A stretch of 64,000 nt of DNA from a phage, in sequence record PV805630.1; one strand, written 5' to 3'. Shown piece by piece: positions 3,397-26,991 of the stretch. The notes beneath the pieces were generated by a model. The model saw only the letters and a program-made list of their open reading frames with translations. It was not told the origin of the DNA and did not search any database. How positions within the stretch are numbered: the first letter of the stretch is position 1; every line of letters starts with the position of its first letter. Position numbers and translations under genes: made by a program.

Positions 3397-3650
3397 TTAT
3401 TACATTCCCTGTAACTAAATCATTTAACTATATGGGACAAACTATTGAAGTCCCATTATGGGTTAAATATGTAGCCTTATTATCTCGACCACAGAAGAGT
3501 AAGAATGCCTCACTAATTGGATTTAGTAGAAAGCCTAAGCTAACTGAAAACTGTATTTGGAAGTCTAGTGGTAGACAAGAGGAAATTGGTTTTTGTGACT
3601 ATGTACCTCAACCGAATACAGTATATCTAACCCTGGAGAAAGTAGAGTGA
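3393..3650 (+). CDS. Hypothetical protein (85 aa, GTG start)
   Basis: Start/stop overlap with neighbours. Confidence 0.4.
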   Translation: MIITFPVTKSFNYMGQTIEVPLWVKYVALLSRPQKSKNASLIGFSRKPKLTENCIWKSSGRQEEIGFCDYVPQPNTVYLTLEKVE

Positions 3651-4979: not shown

Positions 4980-5795
4980 ATGTACTCATCTATTGAACAT
5001 CAGAAGCAACTCGAAGTACTATTCAATAAAAATCAGCTCCTGCCAAGGATGCGAAAAGAGTTCGAGGACTCCGAAGAAATTGACTTTAAGGCATTCGCTG
5101 CCTATTTGGAAATTGATTATAAGCTGCTCATTGATGCAATGGTGCAGATTGCCCTACATAAACGTGCTGACATCCAGACTATGATTGGCTCTCTCATGAG
5201 CCACTCAGATGATGCTCAGTACATCGCTGACTGTCTGTATAAGATGGCAGAGAATGACTGCTTCAACTATGACCCTACCATCGACAAATTCGGTGTTATC
5301 TATGAGATTAGTGAAGATGTACAGATGGAACTGGAAGCATTCCAGTATCCATTACCTATCGTAAGTGCTCCTAATCCTGTCAGAACTAACAGGGATACTG
5401 GTTATTACCAGACCAAAGGAAGCATTATCCTCAAGAAGAACCATCATGAGATGGATGTCTGCCTTGATCACATCAACCGTATGAATAACCAACGCCTCTG
5501 TATTAACTGGGATGTTGCTAACTATGTAAAAGACTCTCGTCCTAACATGGATAAACCCAAAGAGGGTGAAACCCGTCAGGAATATGAGAAACGTGTTAAA
5601 GCCTTTGAGAAGTACAGTCGTACTGCTAAGGAAGTAATGGAGTTAGTGACTCAAGAAGGTAATAACTTCTCACTAGCACATAAGTATGACAAGAGGGGCA
5701 GAACCTATGCCTGTGGTTACCACATTAACTATGCGGGGACCTCTTATAACAAAGCAGTCATAGAGTTCGCAGATAAAGAGCTTGTGGAGGACTAA
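4980..5795 (+). CDS. Phage RNA polymerase II small subunit (N4 gp15-like, 271 aa)
   Basis: Size and position match the N4 two-subunit RNAPII; GGAG RBS. Confidence 0.75.
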   Translation: MYSSIEHQKQLEVLFNKNQLLPRMRKEFEDSEEIDFKAFAAYLEIDYKLLIDAMVQIALHKRADIQTMIGSLMSHSDDAQYIADCLYKMAENDCFNYDPTIDKFGVIYEISEDVQMELEAFQYPLPIVSAPNPVRTNRDTGYYQTKGSIILKKNHHEMDVCLDHINRMNNQRLCINWDVANYVKDSRPNMDKPKEGETRQEYEKRVKAFEKYSRTAKEVMELVTQEGNNFSLAHKYDKRGRTYACGYHINYAGTSYNKAVIEFADKELVED

Positions 5796-6409
5796 TGAAA
5801 ATGTGCAAAGACTGTGGAGAAGTTAAAGACCTATCCCAGTTTGTACCTAAAGCATCCTGCACAGACGGCTACGAAGTACGCTGCCGTAGTTGCAGGGTAC
5901 TCAAATACAATAAAGCTGATCCAGTTAAGATGTTTAAAAAGACATATCTCTCTCAGGTGAACCACTCTGTAACGAGAGGTCATCCACCACCAGCTTATAG
6001 TCTGGAAGAGTTATATGACTGGCTGGATAACCAGCCAAACATTCATGAACTATGGGATGCTTACGTCACCAACAACTATGCTAAGGACTTAAAACCATCA
6101 ATCGACCGTATAGATGACCTTAAGCCGTATACTCTTGATAACATTCAGTTAATGACGTGGAAAGAGAATAGGGACAAAGGTGCCAAGAGCAAAAAAGAAG
6201 GTGTTATTGGGAAGCATAAACCAGTGATTGCCTACCACTTGGATGGCTCAATCTATAAAGAATTTGTTAGTACCATTGAAGCTGCTAGACATGTGTCAGG
6301 CAGAGCATGGGGAATCACCACGGTAGCTGATGGCATACCGGTAAAGGATGGAAGGGATAAGCTCTACAATCCTAAAACATACAAAGGCTACATCTGGGCC
6401 TGGAAATAA
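5795..6409 (+). CDS. HNH homing endonuclease between the two RNAPII subunit genes
   Basis: SIDRIDDLKPYTLDNIQ HNH_3-type motif; Cys-rich N-terminus CKDCGE...CRSC; C-terminal AARHVSG DNA-binding-like module. Confidence 0.75.
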   Translation: MKMCKDCGEVKDLSQFVPKASCTDGYEVRCRSCRVLKYNKADPVKMFKKTYLSQVNHSVTRGHPPPAYSLEELYDWLDNQPNIHELWDAYVTNNYAKDLKPSIDRIDDLKPYTLDNIQLMTWKENRDKGAKSKKEGVIGKHKPVIAYHLDGSIYKEFVSTIEAARHVSGRAWGITTVADGIPVKDGRDKLYNPKTYKGYIWAWK

Positions 6410-6450
6410 TCCATTAAGCGGGGCTTACGCCCAAGAAGCGGAGAAATATC

Positions 6451-7668
6451 ATGCAATTACTTACTGCCCGTGAATACCTGAAAGTAGATATCGCTAACAA
6501 CTATGGCTTAGACAAGAAGACATGGGATGAACGTATTAGCTGGTTCGATGAGAACGAAGCTAACCTGCTCAATCTGGTAGATGAAGCTGAAGAATCTGCA
6601 CTGTTCTACGCAGGTGTAAACGCATGGAAAGACATGAAAGCCGGTAAACCTATCGGTTATGCCGTAGCTCTGGATGCTACATCATCTGGTTTGCAGTTAC
6701 TGGCTTGCCTGACTGGTGACCGTTCTGCTGCTGAACTGTGTAACGTAGTTAACTACATGGGGGAGAATGGTAAGCCATTACGTCGTGATGCTTATACAGT
6801 TATCTATCACAAGATGCTGGACATCCTTGGTGAATCATCCCGTATTAAACGTAGTGATACTAAGCAGGCAGTTATGACTGCGTTCTATGGTTCAGAAGCT
6901 AAGCCTAAAGAAGTATTCGGTGAAGGTATTCGTCTCAAGACTTTTGAGAATGTAATGGAAACAGTTGCTAGTGGACCTTGGGCACTGAACAAGTTCTTAC
7001 TGCAATGTGGTAACCCGGATGCTAACCGTTACGTATGGGTACTGCCTGACAACTTCCATGCTGTCATTAAGGTCATGGTTCCAGAAGTACAGACCGTTAA
7101 CTTCTTAGGTAAGCCATTCGACATCACCCGTATGGTACAGGGTACTGAAGATAAGACTCGTATGCTCTCTGCTAACATCACTCACTCTATTGATGGGATG
7201 GTGGTACGTGAAATGCTGCGTCGTTGTAACTTCAACATGAACCAGGTGAACTATGTTAAGTCCCTCTGTGAAGGAACCAGTGAGTATATGCTGGGTACTA
7301 GCGGGAACTACGACATGGTTAGTCAACTGTGGCATAACTATGAGAAATCAGGATTCCTGTCTACCCGTATCTTTGATTATCTGGATTCTGACTCAATTAA
7401 ACTGGTTGATACAGATGTAATCATGGCTATGATTAATACTATGCCTAAGAAACCATTCCCTGTAATGACTGTACATGACTGCTTCCGTTGTCATCCTAAC
7501 TACGGTAATGATCTGCGTCGTCAGTACAATCAGATTCTGTCTGACATTGCTAAGAGTGATCTACTGGGCTTCATCCTGTCTCAGGTACTGGGACAAGAGT
7601 TCTCTGCTGGTAAGCTGGATGACAGCCTCTGGCAGGACATCCTTGAAACAGACTATGCGTTAAGTTAA
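6451..7668 (+). CDS. Phage RNA polymerase II large subunit (N4 gp16-like, T7-like single-subunit RNAP fold)
   Basis: T7 RNAP-like motif A (LDATSSGLQ), motif B (DTKQAVMTAFYGS) and motif C (TVHDCF). Confidence 0.85.
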   Translation: MQLLTAREYLKVDIANNYGLDKKTWDERISWFDENEANLLNLVDEAEESALFYAGVNAWKDMKAGKPIGYAVALDATSSGLQLLACLTGDRSAAELCNVVNYMGENGKPLRRDAYTVIYHKMLDILGESSRIKRSDTKQAVMTAFYGSEAKPKEVFGEGIRLKTFENVMETVASGPWALNKFLLQCGNPDANRYVWVLPDNFHAVIKVMVPEVQTVNFLGKPFDITRMVQGTEDKTRMLSANITHSIDGMVVREMLRRCNFNMNQVNYVKSLCEGTSEYMLGTSGNYDMVSQLWHNYEKSGFLSTRIFDYLDSDSIKLVDTDVIMAMINTMPKKPFPVMTVHDCFRCHPNYGNDLRRQYNQILSDIAKSDLLGFILSQVLGQEFSAGKLDDSLWQDILETDYALS

Positions 7669-21206: not shown

Positions 21207-21695
21207 ATGGAGTCATATATGAATTGGCACGCTTTATTTGAATACATAGATGGAAAGCTCTATTGGAAAGTTAATCCATCTATGGCAGTGCGTATAGGAC
21301 ACGAAGCAGGGTCCATAAATGGAGATGGTTACATTCAAGTAGGTTACAAAGGCCATGTTTATCAAGCACACATAATTGTGTGGGAAATGCACAACGGCCC
21401 GGTTCCACCAGGAATGGTCATAGACCATGACGACAGGAACAGAATCAATAATCGAATAGATAATTTGAACTTAGTTACTCAGTTGCAAAACAATAGAAAC
21501 AAGTCCAAAAGTAAAAGAAACACATCTGGTGTTACTGGTGTGTACTGGCACAAACGTGACCAGAGATGGGTAGCATCAATCAGGATAGAAGGTAAGCTGA
21601 AACAGTTGGGTCAGACTACCTGTCTGGAGGAAGCTATTAAATTAAGAAGGGAAGCTGAAATAAAACATGGCTTCCATAAAAACCATGGTAAATAA
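21207..21695 (+). CDS. HNH homing endonuclease with AP2 DNA-binding domain
   Basis: IDHDDRNRINNRIDNL HNH motif; GVTGVYWHKRDQRWVASIRIEGK AP2-type domain; alternative ATG 21219 has better RBS. Confidence 0.8.
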   Translation: MESYMNWHALFEYIDGKLYWKVNPSMAVRIGHEAGSINGDGYIQVGYKGHVYQAHIIVWEMHNGPVPPGMVIDHDDRNRINNRIDNLNLVTQLQNNRNKSKSKRNTSGVTGVYWHKRDQRWVASIRIEGKLKQLGQTTCLEEAIKLRREAEIKHGFHKNHGK

Positions 21696-21707: not shown

Positions 21708-23018
21708 ATGTTTTCCAAACCTACCAAAGCCCCATTGAACCAGGGGCAAGAAGCGGTTGCGAAGGAGTTCTTCGACTTCCTGCTCGACCCTAATGCCACA
21801 GAGTTCGGAATCAGTGGACCTGGAGGAACTGGTAAGACATTCCTGATGTCGCACCTCATTGATGACACTATGCCTGCATATATGGAAACCTGTTCTCTGA
21901 TGGGAACCAAGCCTCTGTATAACGAAGTTGTCATGACTGCGACCACGAACAAAGCTGCTGAAGTTCTGGCTCAAGCTACTGGGCGTCCAACGTCTACCTA
22001 TCATTCCTTCCAGGGACTGATTGTTAAGAATGACTTTAAGACCGGTGAGGCTAATGTCGTACCGTCTAAGTCATTCACTATTAAGAAGAACAAAATCATC
22101 TTCGTAGACGAAGCATCCATGATTGACCGTCAGTTACTTAAGTATGCACGTGAAGGCACTCACCAGTGTAAACTGGTATTCGTAGGTGATGCTTCTCAGC
22201 TTCTACCTGTTAAAGAGAGTAAGTCTCCAGTGTATGCTGGCAATATCCCAACACACTATCTGACTGAACAGATGCGTACCGATTCACCAGAACTCAAAGC
22301 GTTGCATCAGCAATTGCGTGATACGGTGGAAGGTAAGACAGGCTTCCTGCCTATTAAATGTATTCCAGGCATTATTGACTGGGTGCAAGGGGAAGAGATG
22401 GAGAAACTGGTTCTCAGTCACTTCACTCAACCCACTAATAGTCGTATTGTTGCTTACACCAATGACCAGGTTATTAATTACAATAACTACATTCGTGAAG
22501 CTAACGGCTACGTGGGTGAATACTCCATTGGAGAACAGCTTGTTTCTAACTCAGCTGTTCGCTTGGGCGTGGATGACCGTCTGTCTATCGAGCAGGACGT
22601 AAAACTCATTGACCAAGATAGCAGTACTCGCATGATTCAAGTCACAGGCGACCTGGAACTAGAAGTCCGTGATAGTACTCTAGACCTTGGTTATGGTGGT
22701 ATTGTTAGTGAAGTTCCAATTCCTACTGACCCGGACTACTTCAACCGTTTGGTTAAGTGGTTAGGTAAAGAGAAGAACTGGGAACCTTACTTCCGTCTTA
22801 AAGAAACCATTCCAGACCTACGTGCTACTCATGCATGTACTGTTCATAAATCACAAGGCTCTACTTACGACACAATCTTCATTGATGCAAATGACCTCTC
22901 AAGCTGTCGCCAACCTGATATGGTTGCCCGTCTGCTTTACGTCGCTGTGTCTCGTGCCCGTAAGCGTGTAGTGTTCTATGGCAATCTTGCCAGTAAGTAC
23001 GGTGGTCTAACTTTCTAA
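21708..23018 (+). CDS. SF1 DNA helicase (Dda/RecD-like, N4 gp37-like)
   Basis: Walker A GPGGTGKT, Walker B IFVDEASM, motif VI-like VAVSRARKR; GGAG RBS. Confidence 0.85.
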   Translation: MFSKPTKAPLNQGQEAVAKEFFDFLLDPNATEFGISGPGGTGKTFLMSHLIDDTMPAYMETCSLMGTKPLYNEVVMTATTNKAAEVLAQATGRPTSTYHSFQGLIVKNDFKTGEANVVPSKSFTIKKNKIIFVDEASMIDRQLLKYAREGTHQCKLVFVGDASQLLPVKESKSPVYAGNIPTHYLTEQMRTDSPELKALHQQLRDTVEGKTGFLPIKCIPGIIDWVQGEEMEKLVLSHFTQPTNSRIVAYTNDQVINYNNYIREANGYVGEYSIGEQLVSNSAVRLGVDDRLSIEQDVKLIDQDSSTRMIQVTGDLELEVRDSTLDLGYGGIVSEVPIPTDPDYFNRLVKWLGKEKNWEPYFRLKETIPDLRATHACTVHKSQGSTYDTIFIDANDLSSCRQPDMVARLLYVAVSRARKRVVFYGNLASKYGGLTF

Positions 23019-23568: not shown

Positions 23569-25386
23569 ATGCGTTACATCACCTCTCAGGATACTGGCAA
23601 GTATCCTATTGCTATCCTCGGTCATCAAATCCGAAGGGAGGAGATGATTAAAACCTACCTGCTGCCTTATGACCTAAGCATGGAAGATTTCATCTTCCTT
23701 GAACTTCATTCTGCCCCTGGCAAGAAGAAAACTCCTGCAAGGGAGATTAAGGAGTTCATACAGCAGGAACTGCAACAAGTACTGGATGATGCAGAGACTC
23801 AATACATTATCTGTACCGATTCTGACTACTTTAAAATACTGACTAAAGAAGCTAAAGCAGAAGCTAACCTCGGCTATGTTTGTGACTCAGTATGGGGTAA
23901 GCAGAAGGTTATCTATACACCTAGTTACAGACAGGTCTTTTACGACCCACCAGTAGTGAAAGCCAAGATTGCTCAGGGTATGGATGCATTACTTAACCAC
24001 ATTCGTGGGCAGTATGCTGAACCAGGACAGGGAATTATTGAGTTTGAAGCCTATCCGGATACACCCGAAAAGATTAAAGCCTGGTTAGACCAGTTGCTTG
24101 AGATGAATAAGCCTCTGGCTATAGACATCGAATCATTCGGTTTAAAGCACTATAACGCAGGTATAGGAACTATTACGTTCTGTTGGAGTAAGACACAAGG
24201 CATAGCCTTTAATGTGGACTACGAGCCGATTAAGGGGGCTACTGAAGCCCCTTATGGGCGTATTAACAGGAATGATGTTGTTCGTAACCTGTTACGTGAG
24301 TTCTTCATTAAATACACTCAACGGCAGATGTATCACAACATTAGCTATGACGTGTACATACTTATCTATCAGTTATTCATGGATAACCTGATTGATACAG
24401 AAGGCTTACTGCATGGCATGGAAATCATGCTACGTAACTGGGACTGTACTAAGTTAATCACCTACCTGGCTACTAACAGTTGTGCCGGTAATCACCTTAG
24501 TCTGAAAGATCAGGCTCAGGAGTATGCTGGTAACTATGCTCAGGATGACATTAAAGACATACGTCTTATTCCTAATGAGCAACTGTTACGCTACAACCTC
24601 ATTGATGGTTTGTGTACGTGGTACACCTACGAGAAGCACTGGGATACTCTCATTGCTGATGACCAACTGGATGTTTACAACAACATCTTTAAACCAGCCT
24701 GTGAAGACATTATTCAGATGCAGTTAACCGGTATGCCCATGAATATGGAAACCGTTAACCAAGTAGCTGAAGAGATGGAAACTGACAGGAATCAGGCTCT
24801 GAAAACTATTCGTGAGTCTAAGCTCATGAAGAACTTCACCCTGATGCTTCGGCAGGAATGGGTAGACGATAAGAATGCTAAGCTTAAGAAGAAGCAGGTA
24901 ACACTGGCTGATTGTGACATCGAGTTTAATCCTAATTCAGGGCCACAATTACAGAAACTGTTATTTGATTATATTGGCTTACCGGTCCTTGGTCTTACTA
25001 AGAGCAAGCAACCTGCTACTGACGGTGACACTATTAAAGCACTGCGTACACATACGCAGAGTGAAGATGTTAAGGAACTGCTCAATGCACTTATCGACTA
25101 TAAACTCGTGGATAAGATTATCACTAGTTTTATACCAGCTTTCAGGAATGCCCAACCGGGGCCGGATGGCTGGCACTATCTGTTCGGAAACCTCAATCTG
25201 GGAGGCACAGTCTCCGGTAGGCTATCGGCTTCAGAGCCAAATCTACAAACAATTCCATCCGGCTCTAAATATGCCAAGAAGATTAAGAAATGCTTCGAAG
25301 CCCCACCCAGTTGTTACTTGCCAAACAGGAATAAGCTGGATACATTAATCCAGTCCCTGAAAAATACAATTGGTGGTGCCGAATGA
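23569..25386 (+). CDS. DNA polymerase (family A), N-terminal fragment: 3'-5' exonuclease plus N-terminal part of polymerase domain
   Basis: Exo I LAIDIESFG; Pol I-like SGRLSASEPNLQTIP and KKCFEAP just before the stop; catalytic motifs A/B/C absent from this ORF. Confidence 0.85.
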   Translation: MRYITSQDTGKYPIAILGHQIRREEMIKTYLLPYDLSMEDFIFLELHSAPGKKKTPAREIKEFIQQELQQVLDDAETQYIICTDSDYFKILTKEAKAEANLGYVCDSVWGKQKVIYTPSYRQVFYDPPVVKAKIAQGMDALLNHIRGQYAEPGQGIIEFEAYPDTPEKIKAWLDQLLEMNKPLAIDIESFGLKHYNAGIGTITFCWSKTQGIAFNVDYEPIKGATEAPYGRINRNDVVRNLLREFFIKYTQRQMYHNISYDVYILIYQLFMDNLIDTEGLLHGMEIMLRNWDCTKLITYLATNSCAGNHLSLKDQAQEYAGNYAQDDIKDIRLIPNEQLLRYNLIDGLCTWYTYEKHWDTLIADDQLDVYNNIFKPACEDIIQMQLTGMPMNMETVNQVAEEMETDRNQALKTIRESKLMKNFTLMLRQEWVDDKNAKLKKKQVTLADCDIEFNPNSGPQLQKLLFDYIGLPVLGLTKSKQPATDGDTIKALRTHTQSEDVKELLNALIDYKLVDKIITSFIPAFRNAQPGPDGWHYLFGNLNLGGTVSGRLSASEPNLQTIPSGSKYAKKIKKCFEAPPSCYLPNRNKLDTLIQSLKNTIGGAE

Positions 25387-26039
25387 TTGGAAAGAAATTC
25401 AATAGATTGACAATAGTAAGATTCAGTCACAAAGACAAATACTATGCAAAGCATTGGGAATGTCTTTGTGACTGTGGGAACACTACTATAGTCAATATTC
25501 AAAAATTAAAGAGTGGTCATACAAGAAGCTGTGGATGTTTACACAAGGAACGCCCGGGCAACTACAAAGATGGGCGTTCCAAGGAACTCCTATATAAGAT
25601 TTACTACGGTATTCTTGACCGCTGCCATAATGAAAAGTGTTCCACTTATTACAAATATGGAGCCAAAGGCGTAATTGTTTGCGACGAGTGGAGGAATTCA
25701 TATGAAACTTTCCGAGAATGGGCATTATCTTCTGGCTATAAAGTAGGTCTTAGTATTGACAGGATTGATTCTTACAAAGGGTACTCTCCTGACAACTGTA
25801 GGTGGGCAGATAGAAGTACCCAACAAACTAATAAGAGGGTTTGGAGTACAACTCCTTACGTTAGTTACAGTAAGTCGAAAAATAAATGGGTAGGTAGAAT
25901 TACCCATTTAGGTAAGAGAGTAGAAATCCTAGTAGATAAAGATTTAGATGCTGTTATGAATGCGGTTATTGCTTATGTATTAGCAAATAACATGGTTGAA
26001 CAGGAGAAGGTACTTCGTAATGCAGGACTTATTAAATAA
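25383..26039 (+). CDS. HNH homing endonuclease inserted in the DNA polymerase gene
   Basis: LSIDRIDSYKGYSPDNCRW HNH_3 motif; Cys cluster CLCDCG...SCGC; AP2-like C-terminus NKWVGRITHLGKRVEIL; ATG overlaps polymerase stop. Confidence 0.8.
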   Translation: MIGKKFNRLTIVRFSHKDKYYAKHWECLCDCGNTTIVNIQKLKSGHTRSCGCLHKERPGNYKDGRSKELLYKIYYGILDRCHNEKCSTYYKYGAKGVIVCDEWRNSYETFREWALSSGYKVGLSIDRIDSYKGYSPDNCRWADRSTQQTNKRVWSTTPYVSYSKSKNKWVGRITHLGKRVEILVDKDLDAVMNAVIAYVLANNMVEQEKVLRNAGLIK

Positions 26040-26991
26040 ATTAGTTAGCATAAAAGATAGAGTAACCCTGGATGACTATGATGAATTAATGCAATTAGCT
26101 AGTAAATATGACATGCAGGAACAAGTGTCTGATTGCTTTAACTATGAGGGGGGTTGGTTGTTCTGTGGCCTCGATTTTGCATCCTTAGAGGATCGCATAT
26201 CAGCCCTAACAACCAAAGACCCTAATAAATTGCGTGTATACACTGACGGGTTCGATGGACATTCACTCAGAGCTAAATTTTATTTCGGGGAACAAATGCC
26301 GGATATTGATGACTCTGTGGAAGGCATCAACTCTATACAGAAAAAATATAAGTCATTACGTAGTGAATCGAAAGCACCTACTTTCTTATTAACCTACGGA
26401 GGGACTTATATGGGCTTAATGAAAAACTGTGGTTTCTCTGAAGAGAAAGCTAAGTTAATCGAATCCAGATACCACGAAATGTATACAGTTAGTGATGCGT
26501 GGGTTCAGTCTAAGCTAGACGAAGCTGCCAAAACTGGTTATGTAACTGCTGCATTTGGTTTGAGAGTGCGTACTCCTTTACTGGCTCAGGTATTACGTGG
26601 GACATGTAAGACTCCATATGAAGCAGAAGCTGAAGGTAGGACTGCTGGTAATGCCTTGGGGCAAAGCTGGTGTCTACTTAATAACCGTGCTGGTTCAGAG
26701 TTTATGCGTAAAGTCAGAGCCAGTGAGTTCAGATTAGATATACGTCCTAGTATTCACATTCATGATGCTCAGTACTTCATGATTCGTGACAATATGGATA
26801 CCTTGCAATTCACGAACAAGCATTTGGTGGAAGCCGTTAACTGGCAAGACCATCCTGATATTGCTCATCCAGAAGTTGGTTTGGGTGGGGAACTATCCTT
26901 GTTCTACCCAACGTGGGCTAACGAGATTGAGATTCCAAATCACGCTACCCCAGAAGAAGTTCATCAAATAATTCAAAAGGCATTCGCATGA
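25996..26991 (+). CDS. DNA polymerase (family A), C-terminal fragment: palm and fingers with motifs A, B, C
   Basis: Motif A DFASLEDRI, motif B SESKAPTFLLTYGG, motif C IHIHDAQYF; homology starts about residue 50 (EGGWLF); start codon uncertain (TTG 25996 or ATG 26020). Confidence 0.8.
   Translation: MNRRRYFVMQDLLNKLVSIKDRVTLDDYDELMQLASKYDMQEQVSDCFNYEGGWLFCGLDFASLEDRISALTTKDPNKLRVYTDGFDGHSLRAKFYFGEQMPDIDDSVEGINSIQKKYKSLRSESKAPTFLLTYGGTYMGLMKNCGFSEEKAKLIESRYHEMYTVSDAWVQSKLDEAAKTGYVTAAFGLRVRTPLLAQVLRGTCKTPYEAEAEGRTAGNALGQSWCLLNNRAGSEFMRKVRASEFRLDIRPSIHIHDAQYFMIRDNMDTLQFTNKHLVEAVNWQDHPDIAHPEVGLGGELSLFYPTWANEIEIPNHATPEEVHQIIQKAFA

Follow-up and report, generated by a model that had tools for sequence, protein, structure and literature searches.

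A predicted free-standing homing endonuclease gene with a PacI-type core between the RNA polymerase II genes of a G7C-like phage

We examined a 204-amino-acid (aa) open reading frame (ORF) situated between the two RNA polymerase II (RNAPII) genes of a phage, in a stretch of 64,000 nucleotides (nt) from sequence record PV805630.1 that is referred to here as the window. By its sequence, the window is a G7C-like Gamaleyavirus, that is, a G7C-like member of the N4-like Schitoviridae; the DNA of its polymerase genes was 97.6% identical to that of Escherichia phage G7C, and every match belonged to a Gamaleyavirus. The initial annotation had described an HNH endonuclease gene inserted between the small-subunit and catalytic-subunit genes, and the 204-aa ORF was indeed recovered at 5795-6409, with gp15 ending at 5795 and gp16 starting at 6451. 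The junction is composed of the following features, where the asterisk marks a stop codon:

4980..5795, + strand: gp15-like small subunit of N4-type RNAPII, 271 aa (PHROG 2166, G7C identity)
5784..5795, + strand: recoded gp15 3' end, GTGGAGGACTAA (..VED*) (junction comparison of 17 genomes)
5795..6409, + strand: predicted free-standing homing-endonuclease gene, 204 aa (ORF list, PHROGs, homologues, AlphaFold2 model, Foldseek, dN/dS)
6407..6450, + strand: native gp15-gp16 intergenic element, TAATCCATTAAGC with a short hairpin and a Shine-Dalgarno sequence (it likewise follows gp15 at the empty N4 and phiG17 junctions)
6451..7668, + strand: gp16-like catalytic subunit of RNAPII, 405 aa (Pfam RNA_pol, PHROG 2051)

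The upstream gene was identified as an N4-like RNA polymerase through PHROG 2166 (E=2.6e-115), and its product shares 98.9% aa identity with G7C gp15. The downstream gene matched both PHROG 2051 (E=3e-177) and Pfam RNA_pol (E=1.1e-14). It was noted that the overlap reported between the start of the ORF and the upstream stop amounts to one base, position 5795, which is common to the ATG of the ORF (5795-5797) and the TAA of gp15 (5793-5795) in the arrangement TAATG. As the homologues open with MK-x-C, translation probably starts at the first ATG; a Shine-Dalgarno sequence, GGAGG, is found at 5786-5790, 4 nt 5' of this ATG. At the other end, the stop codon of the ORF is the first TAA of the native intergenic element TAATCCAYTAATGC, and the gp16-like gene begins 41 nt past the stop. 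A promoter scan near the endonuclease gene gave no sigma-70-like site. An intron context for the gene was considered and rejected, as Rfam at gathering thresholds found no intron in the 64-kb window and the gene is flanked by complete ORFs.

The protein encoded by the ORF was divided into three regions, within which we located the residues of a candidate active site:

5795..5899, + strand: N-terminal Cys4 zinc ribbon, residues 1-35, with C4, C7, C30, and C33 (Cys invariant in 59 homologues)
6089..6199, + strand: beta-beta-alpha-metal nuclease core, residues 99-135 (DSSP of the model, I-HmuI and PacI alignments)
6104-6106 (D104), 6107-6109 (R105), 6128-6130 (Y112), 6140-6142 (N116), and 6167-6169 (N125), + strand: core residues
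6215..6406, + strand: C-terminal NUMOD-like or I-HmuI-like DNA-binding region, residues 141-204 (family profile, homologue domains)

Direct searches with the 204-aa protein returned nothing meaningful in Pfam (E<=1), NCBIfam (E<=10), or the PDB sequences (E<=10), and the classification of the endonuclease rests on PHROGs, the family profile, and the predicted structure. The protein matched PHROG 1035 (E=2.4e-27), and the family profile matched residues 56-171 of I-HmuI in the PDB (E=3.1e-4). The AlphaFold2 model reached a predicted local distance difference test (pLDDT) score of 94, with DSSP assigning residues 101-105 and 117-121 to strands and 122-134 to a helix. When this model was compared with the PDB by Foldseek, I-HmuI (E=2e-4) and PacI (E=0.043, probability 0.97) were recovered, and the matches among the viral structures of BFVD included many HNH and homing endonucleases, such as T4 MobB, as well as giant-virus proteins. 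The fold and profile searches thus group the protein with I-HmuI and PacI, in agreement with the homing-endonuclease insertion originally proposed. The Cys-rich N-terminus that had been pointed out corresponds to the four invariant Cys residues. The HNH_3-type motif, SIDRIDDLKPYTLDNIQ at residues 102-118, is present and stands at the level of the superfamily; membership of the protein in the Pfam family HNH_3 (PF13392) was rejected, with no Pfam family at E<=1 and an Arg at the position of the His.

The residue roles were assigned from alignments and secondary structure alone. In the alignment with I-HmuI, D104-R105 falls on D74-H75, N116 on N87, and N125 on N96, which indicates that the metal ligands are kept and the general-base His is replaced by Arg. 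Across the alignment of 59 homologues, C4, C7, C30, C33, Q54, P66, Y68, S102, Y112, N116, W122, and N125 were invariant, and D104 and R105 were nearly so. Of the 253 family proteins compared, 232 have the motif D-R-x6-Y-x3-N-x8-N, and one further protein carries His for Arg. The sole relative seen with a natural R-to-H variant (SIDHIDD) is P0002, a metagenomic homologue that is 77% identical and could inform the mechanism. Residues 90-117 of PacI read GVDRSDSFEGYSPQNARLACFICNRIKS, and the spacing of D92/R93/Y100/N104/N113 is identical to that of D104/R105/Y112/N116/N125. In PacI the His is likewise absent, and a loop tyrosine between the strands takes its role (PMC5714182, PMC4081073). From these correspondences, D104 and N125 are putative metal ligands, N116 would brace the hairpin, and Y112 is a putative base or nucleophile. 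The N-terminal Cys segment is collinear with PacI 1-44 and Hpy99I 75-118, with non-significant E-values. The homologues carry Pfam NUMOD1 PF07453 or PF22083, none of which scored directly on the window protein (Pfam E<=1); in G7C gp15.1, NUMOD1 was detected at the equivalent position (E=6e-8). That the family appears to combine a PacI-type active site with an I-HmuI-type tail is, as judged from these comparisons, a new observation. It was also observed that the top profile matches (P0110-P0114 and similar) are proteins of 800-1800 aa with 8-13 tandem NUMOD-like C-terminal modules and without the DR..Y..N motif, and that they form a family of repeat proteins.

The content of the gp15-gp16 junction was then compared among relatives, and the following occupants were recorded:

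Empty junction: phiG17 (55 nt), N4 (47 nt)
Small ORFs of 36-80 aa, dissimilar to all the endonucleases: PhAPEC5, U1G, CU10EC, KKP3715, E20, 24-32N
G7C-type endonuclease gene: G7C, Bas96, PGN829.1
Unrelated 168-aa HNH_3 and AP2 gene: Mimir124, PW8
Window-type gene, 75-76% aa identity: HK2, pSb-1
Window-type gene, 97% aa identity: two metagenomic contigs

The synteny comparison with N4-like genomes suggested by the initial annotation favours insertion, given the short intervals between the RNAPII genes of phiG17 and N4. Most Gamaleyaviruses are without the window-type gene, and an endonuclease gene at the junction can be any of three different ones; the distribution is not that of a gene present in all relatives with a non-nuclease function. 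In the phage collection, HK2 and pSb-1 were the only carriers of the window type at >60% identity, and no record held the window allele above 76% aa identity. A G7C-set phage without ORF15.1 is also on record (supplement, bioRxiv 10.1101/542787). Such sporadic presence, together with intact empty sites among close relatives, is the pattern by which homing genes are recognised. The small junction ORFs of PhAPEC5, U1G, CU10EC, KKP3715, E20, and 24-32N were considered as decayed endonuclease remnants, and this was rejected, as tblastn with all three endonuclease types found no similarity at E<=1.

The boundaries of the inserted genes were compared across the 17 genomes. Endonuclease-free alleles of gp15 end in GTAAAYGAAGACTAA (..VNED*), whereas VED* and TAATG recur in every genome with a window-type or Mimir124-type gene, gp15 ending there in GT(G/A)GAGGACTAA (..VED*). 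The recoded last codons of gp15 create the GGAGG and therefore a ribosome-binding site for the inserted gene. The Mimir124 junction gene matched Pfam HNH_3 (E=2.5e-14), and it fills the identical slot as the window type, delimited by the gp15 TAA and by TAATCC. That unrelated endonuclease genes have this exact slot in common is a new observation. In N4, the TAATCCAYTAATGC element starts 1 nt past the gp15 stop. The G7C-type carriers (G7C, Bas96, and PGN829.1) have GAGGATTAG in common instead, and the native intergenic element is missing. It was noted that in the same three phages the first ~60 nt of gp16 are strongly recoded (MQIFTAKEYLKIDIANS.., with ~25/60 nt differing; G7C L003 2904..2975, Bas96 L022, PGN829.1 L023), which suggests that the target of the G7C-type endonuclease is the 5' end of gp16 and not the 3' end of gp15. 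As to the intergenic element itself, TAATCCAYTAATGC with a short GC hairpin and an AAGGAA Shine-Dalgarno sequence is kept from N4 to the Gamaleyaviruses (N4 L024 1108..1154; phiG17 L005 2320..2374). The hairpin stem varies, being GGGC/GCCC in the window, GAGCC/GGCTC in phiG17, and a 9-bp stem in PhAPEC5 and HK2; every variant has a hairpin at that point ahead of gp16, but the folds were not significant against shuffled sequences (z -1.0 to -2.2).

We next consider the evolution of the gene. The ORF is real, with 109 database homologues (best E=1.5e-134), and its family comprises 2,046 clusters (50% identity) at E<=1e-30 and 11,226 at E<=1e-10. The ratio of nonsynonymous to synonymous divergence (dN/dS) among the endonuclease alleles was 0.04-0.07, as low as for gp15 and gp16; by this measure, the gene is under strong purifying selection and retains its function. 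Between the window and HK2, the synonymous divergence (dS) of the endonuclease gene was >2.4 (saturated) compared to 0.39-0.57 for the flanks. Mismatches between the window and G7C were dense at 5678-5795 and 6456-6513, sparse up to 6768, and zero at 6769-7668, from which one tract was delimited:

5678..6615 (approximate), + strand: tract departing from the near-identical G7C backbone, comprising the swapped cassette and converted flanks (mismatch map against G7C)

In all four distant N4-like metagenomic lineages, where gp15 is 39-51% identical, a homologue was found directly 3' of gp15. Its identity exceeded that of gp15/gp16 in three of the four (58% vs 39/40%, 56% vs 40/44%, and 64% vs 51/54%), and in the fourth the values were 50% vs 50/50%. 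The contig of one such lineage, L014, contains at 3398..3499 a displaced and divergent copy of the last 23 gp15 codons (INYQGASYNKAVIEFADGEVIKE and a stop), beginning at the stop codon of the endonuclease gene. This copy points to insertion of the cassette within the 3' end of gp15 (between ..GYH and INY..), with the cassette supplying its own replacement end. The history of the endonuclease gene is, on these comparisons, discordant with that of the flanking genes. Taken together, the low dN/dS, the placement, the divergence, and the L014 copy are what one would expect of a site-specific mobile endonuclease gene.

What was observed comprises the gene itself, the class of its fold, the degree to which it is conserved, a distribution both sporadic and site-specific, and a history at odds with that of the flanks. 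We consider it likely that the ORF is a functional free-standing homing endonuclease in a slot between the gp15 stop and the native gp15-gp16 element; nuclease activity, a tyrosine mechanism, the target site, and homing of the 204-aa protein are predicted. The protein would be laid out as a Cys4 zinc ribbon, a helical linker, a PacI-type beta-beta-alpha-metal core, and a NUMOD-like, I-HmuI-like tail. It would be translated early, with the TAATG overlap and the GGAGG made by recoding coupling it to gp15. During mixed infection with a relative without the gene, the protein may nick or cut the naive junction or the 3' region of gp15, and recombinational repair from the carrier genome would copy the gene along with some flanking sequence. 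The carrier itself would be shielded by its recoded gp15 end and by the physical interruption of the site. Such homing and co-conversion would explain a G7C backbone with a foreign cassette and converted flanks. In phage 10Gb, an endonuclease-like gene (DR..Y..N) within a DNA-polymerase insertion could be cloned only with a frameshift, from which its authors infer nuclease toxicity (bioRxiv 10.1101/542787); this result lends indirect experimental support to the activity of DR..Y..N proteins.

Several observations weigh against a homing endonuclease. The canonical catalytic His is absent, with R105 at the position of I-HmuI His75; the substitution of Tyr for His is argued by analogy with PacI, and the PacI sequence match (E=0.35) is not significant alone. 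Nearly every family member shares the Arg, Pfam gives no HNH match, and the purifying selection equals that on the essential neighbours, all of which would suit a catalytically dead protein that has lost the general-base His, binds DNA by its zinc ribbon and NUMOD tail, and regulates the RNAPII operon or serves another early function, comparable to Smad MH1, a disabled His-Me finger. Certain His-less His-Me groups are in fact inactive (PMC5714182). We regard such a protein as quite unlikely. The PacI set of D, R, loop Y, N, and N recurs with the same spacing in >230 relatives, PacI being an active enzyme, and a sporadic distribution with empty sites is unlike that of a needed regulator. The related 10Gb DR..Y..N gene, clonable only when frameshifted, also speaks against a dead nuclease (bioRxiv 10.1101/542787). 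That the ORF is spurious or a decaying pseudogene has a negligible probability: it is small and has no Pfam or NCBIfam match, with nothing else in favour, and the full-length homologues, the low dN/dS given above, the confident fold, and an intact start with a Shine-Dalgarno sequence refute it.

Other counter-evidence concerns mobility. The exact same TAA...TAATCC boundaries of two unrelated endonuclease ORFs are also expected from simple cassette exchange by flanking homology without cleavage, and the converted flanks could stem from the ordinary mosaic recombination that occurs often in the G7C set (bioRxiv 10.1101/542787). Both would accord with a passenger gene, accessory ORFs being swapped through homologous recombination at a hot spot between the conserved polymerase genes; its nuclease would serve another purpose, such as attack on host or competitor DNA, and not its own spread. 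The slot also holds unrelated small ORFs dissimilar to endonucleases, and gp15-gp16 spacing varies widely across Schitoviridae. We find this doubtful, though conceivable. The gene is in exactly the same place, and better conserved than its flanks, in lineages where gp15 is only 39-51% identical, which argues for site-specific spread and not for passive hitch-hiking, and the copy of the gp15 3' end in L014 indicates insertion into a gene and not exchange between genes. Neither a dead nuclease nor a passenger fits the data as well as a homing endonuclease.

Two further endonuclease-like genes, reported in the initial annotation at 21207 and 25383, proved to be real, one beside a helicase gene and the other between the halves of the DNA polymerase:

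21207..21695: endonuclease gene with canonical HNH_3 and AP2 domains (Pfam E=1.1e-19); 12 nt separate it from the downstream SF1 helicase gene (21708..23018)
23569..25386: first ORF of the family-A DNA polymerase, 605 aa (Pfam DNA_pol_A positions 11-150)
25383..26039: 218-aa ORF between the DNA polymerase halves, with a PacI-type motif, SIDRIDSYKGYSPDNCRWA (PacI E=0.039)
25996..26991: second ORF of the family-A DNA polymerase, 331 aa, TTG start as listed (Pfam DNA_pol_A positions 131-303)

It was noted that the domain architecture of the gene at 21207..21695 is that of the gp15-gp16 slot gene of Mimir124 and PW8. The 218-aa ORF at 25383..26039 had no Pfam match, and Rfam gave no group I intron. 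As in the window, a non-splicing insertion in 10Gb g39 results in a two-piece DNA polymerase (bioRxiv 10.1101/542787). In two distant metagenomic N4-like contigs (L014 3674..5907 and L008 5395..7607), the gp16 homologue is split again, between ..AN(I/V)THS and IDGM... The intervening ORF, in each case another endonuclease gene, is one of 247 aa with an IDKD..Y.P.N motif in L014 and one with GIY-YIG and NUMOD3 in L008, and the downstream gp16 halves have their own ATG in both. By analogy, the DNA polymerase of the window and these gp16 splits may represent the same fragmentation in progress.

T7-like single-subunit RNA polymerases (RNAPs) align unbroken over the gp15/gp16 boundary (e.g., query positions 190-554), so that the endonuclease slot is located exactly at the break of the split polymerase. 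By eye, the gp15 end and the gp16 start presumably continue the ...LAKGKPIGKEGYYWLKIHGANCAGVDK region of T7 RNAP. A speculative and rather improbable extension is that the heterodimeric N4 RNAPII is a fixed 'gene in pieces', in which an ancestral single-chain T7-like RNAP gene was split by an invading free-standing endonuclease gene of this family.

These results bear on annotation in several ways. We propose that the gene be labelled as a free-standing homing endonuclease whose His-Me finger core is of the PacI (tyrosine) type, and not as HNH_3 or "endonuclease VII". The nuclease part of the family has no Pfam model; since the family is large and also lacks the canonical His, the biochemistry of one member bears on thousands of phage proteins. 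At least three endonuclease lineages share the gp15-gp16 junction of N4-like phages as a landing slot, and endonuclease elements repeatedly fragment the polymerases of these phages, which bears on the origin of the two-subunit RNAPII without proving it. Free-standing homing endonucleases beside essential phage genes are well known, and the window gene is an ordinary mobile element. Since G7C and pSb-1 have already been annotated with such genes, the discovery is a modest one; the presence of this particular allele in a G7C backbone is new.

Compared with known systems, the window gene resembles free-standing endonucleases of the T4 Seg/Mob kind in being sporadic among relatives and transferred with flanking sequence. 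A further free-standing example is mobE, which splits nrdA in Aeromonas phage Aeh1. The T4 Seg/Mob genes and the 10Gb g39 insertion (bioRxiv 10.1101/542787) are, like the window gene, small endonuclease genes between or within conserved replication or transcription genes. None of these, mobE included, is at the gp15-gp16 junction, unlike the window gene, for which activity is predicted. I-HmuI, the HNH homing endonuclease of Bacillus phage SPO1 (PDB 1u3e), is intron-encoded, relies on His75 for its general base, and lacks a Cys4 ribbon at the N-terminus. The window protein is instead encoded by a free-standing gene, with Arg at the His75 position and a zinc ribbon and helical linker ahead of the core; it is similar to I-HmuI (His-Me group 2) in having a NUMOD or helix-turn-helix-type module C-terminal to the nuclease. 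PacI (PDB 3ldy/3m7k; His-Me finger group 20, PMC5714182) is a homodimeric restriction enzyme of 142 aa, in which a second Cys4 site lies around the helix (LACFICN). The window protein has the N-terminal Cys4 only, with LMTWKEN at the position of LACFICN and an added NUMOD tail, but like PacI it is without the His and has a loop Tyr within D-R-x6-Y-x3-N-x8-N.

The closest known counterparts are G7C ORF15.1, pSb-1 gp54, and the HK2 'endonuclease', which occupy the same gp15-gp16 position and belong to the same protein family. Among existing annotations, G7C ORF15.1 is a 'putative HNH homing endonuclease' and pSb-1 gp54 an endonuclease VII. ORF15.1 (193 aa) is 33% identical to the window protein and has the same DR..Y..N..N motif and a NUMOD1; the G7C type differs from the window type in taking the place of the intergenic element and in being accompanied by recoding at the 5' end of gp16. 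With respect to HK2 and pSb-1, the window allele is a distinct lineage with saturated synonymous divergence, sharing 97% identity only with metagenomic contigs.

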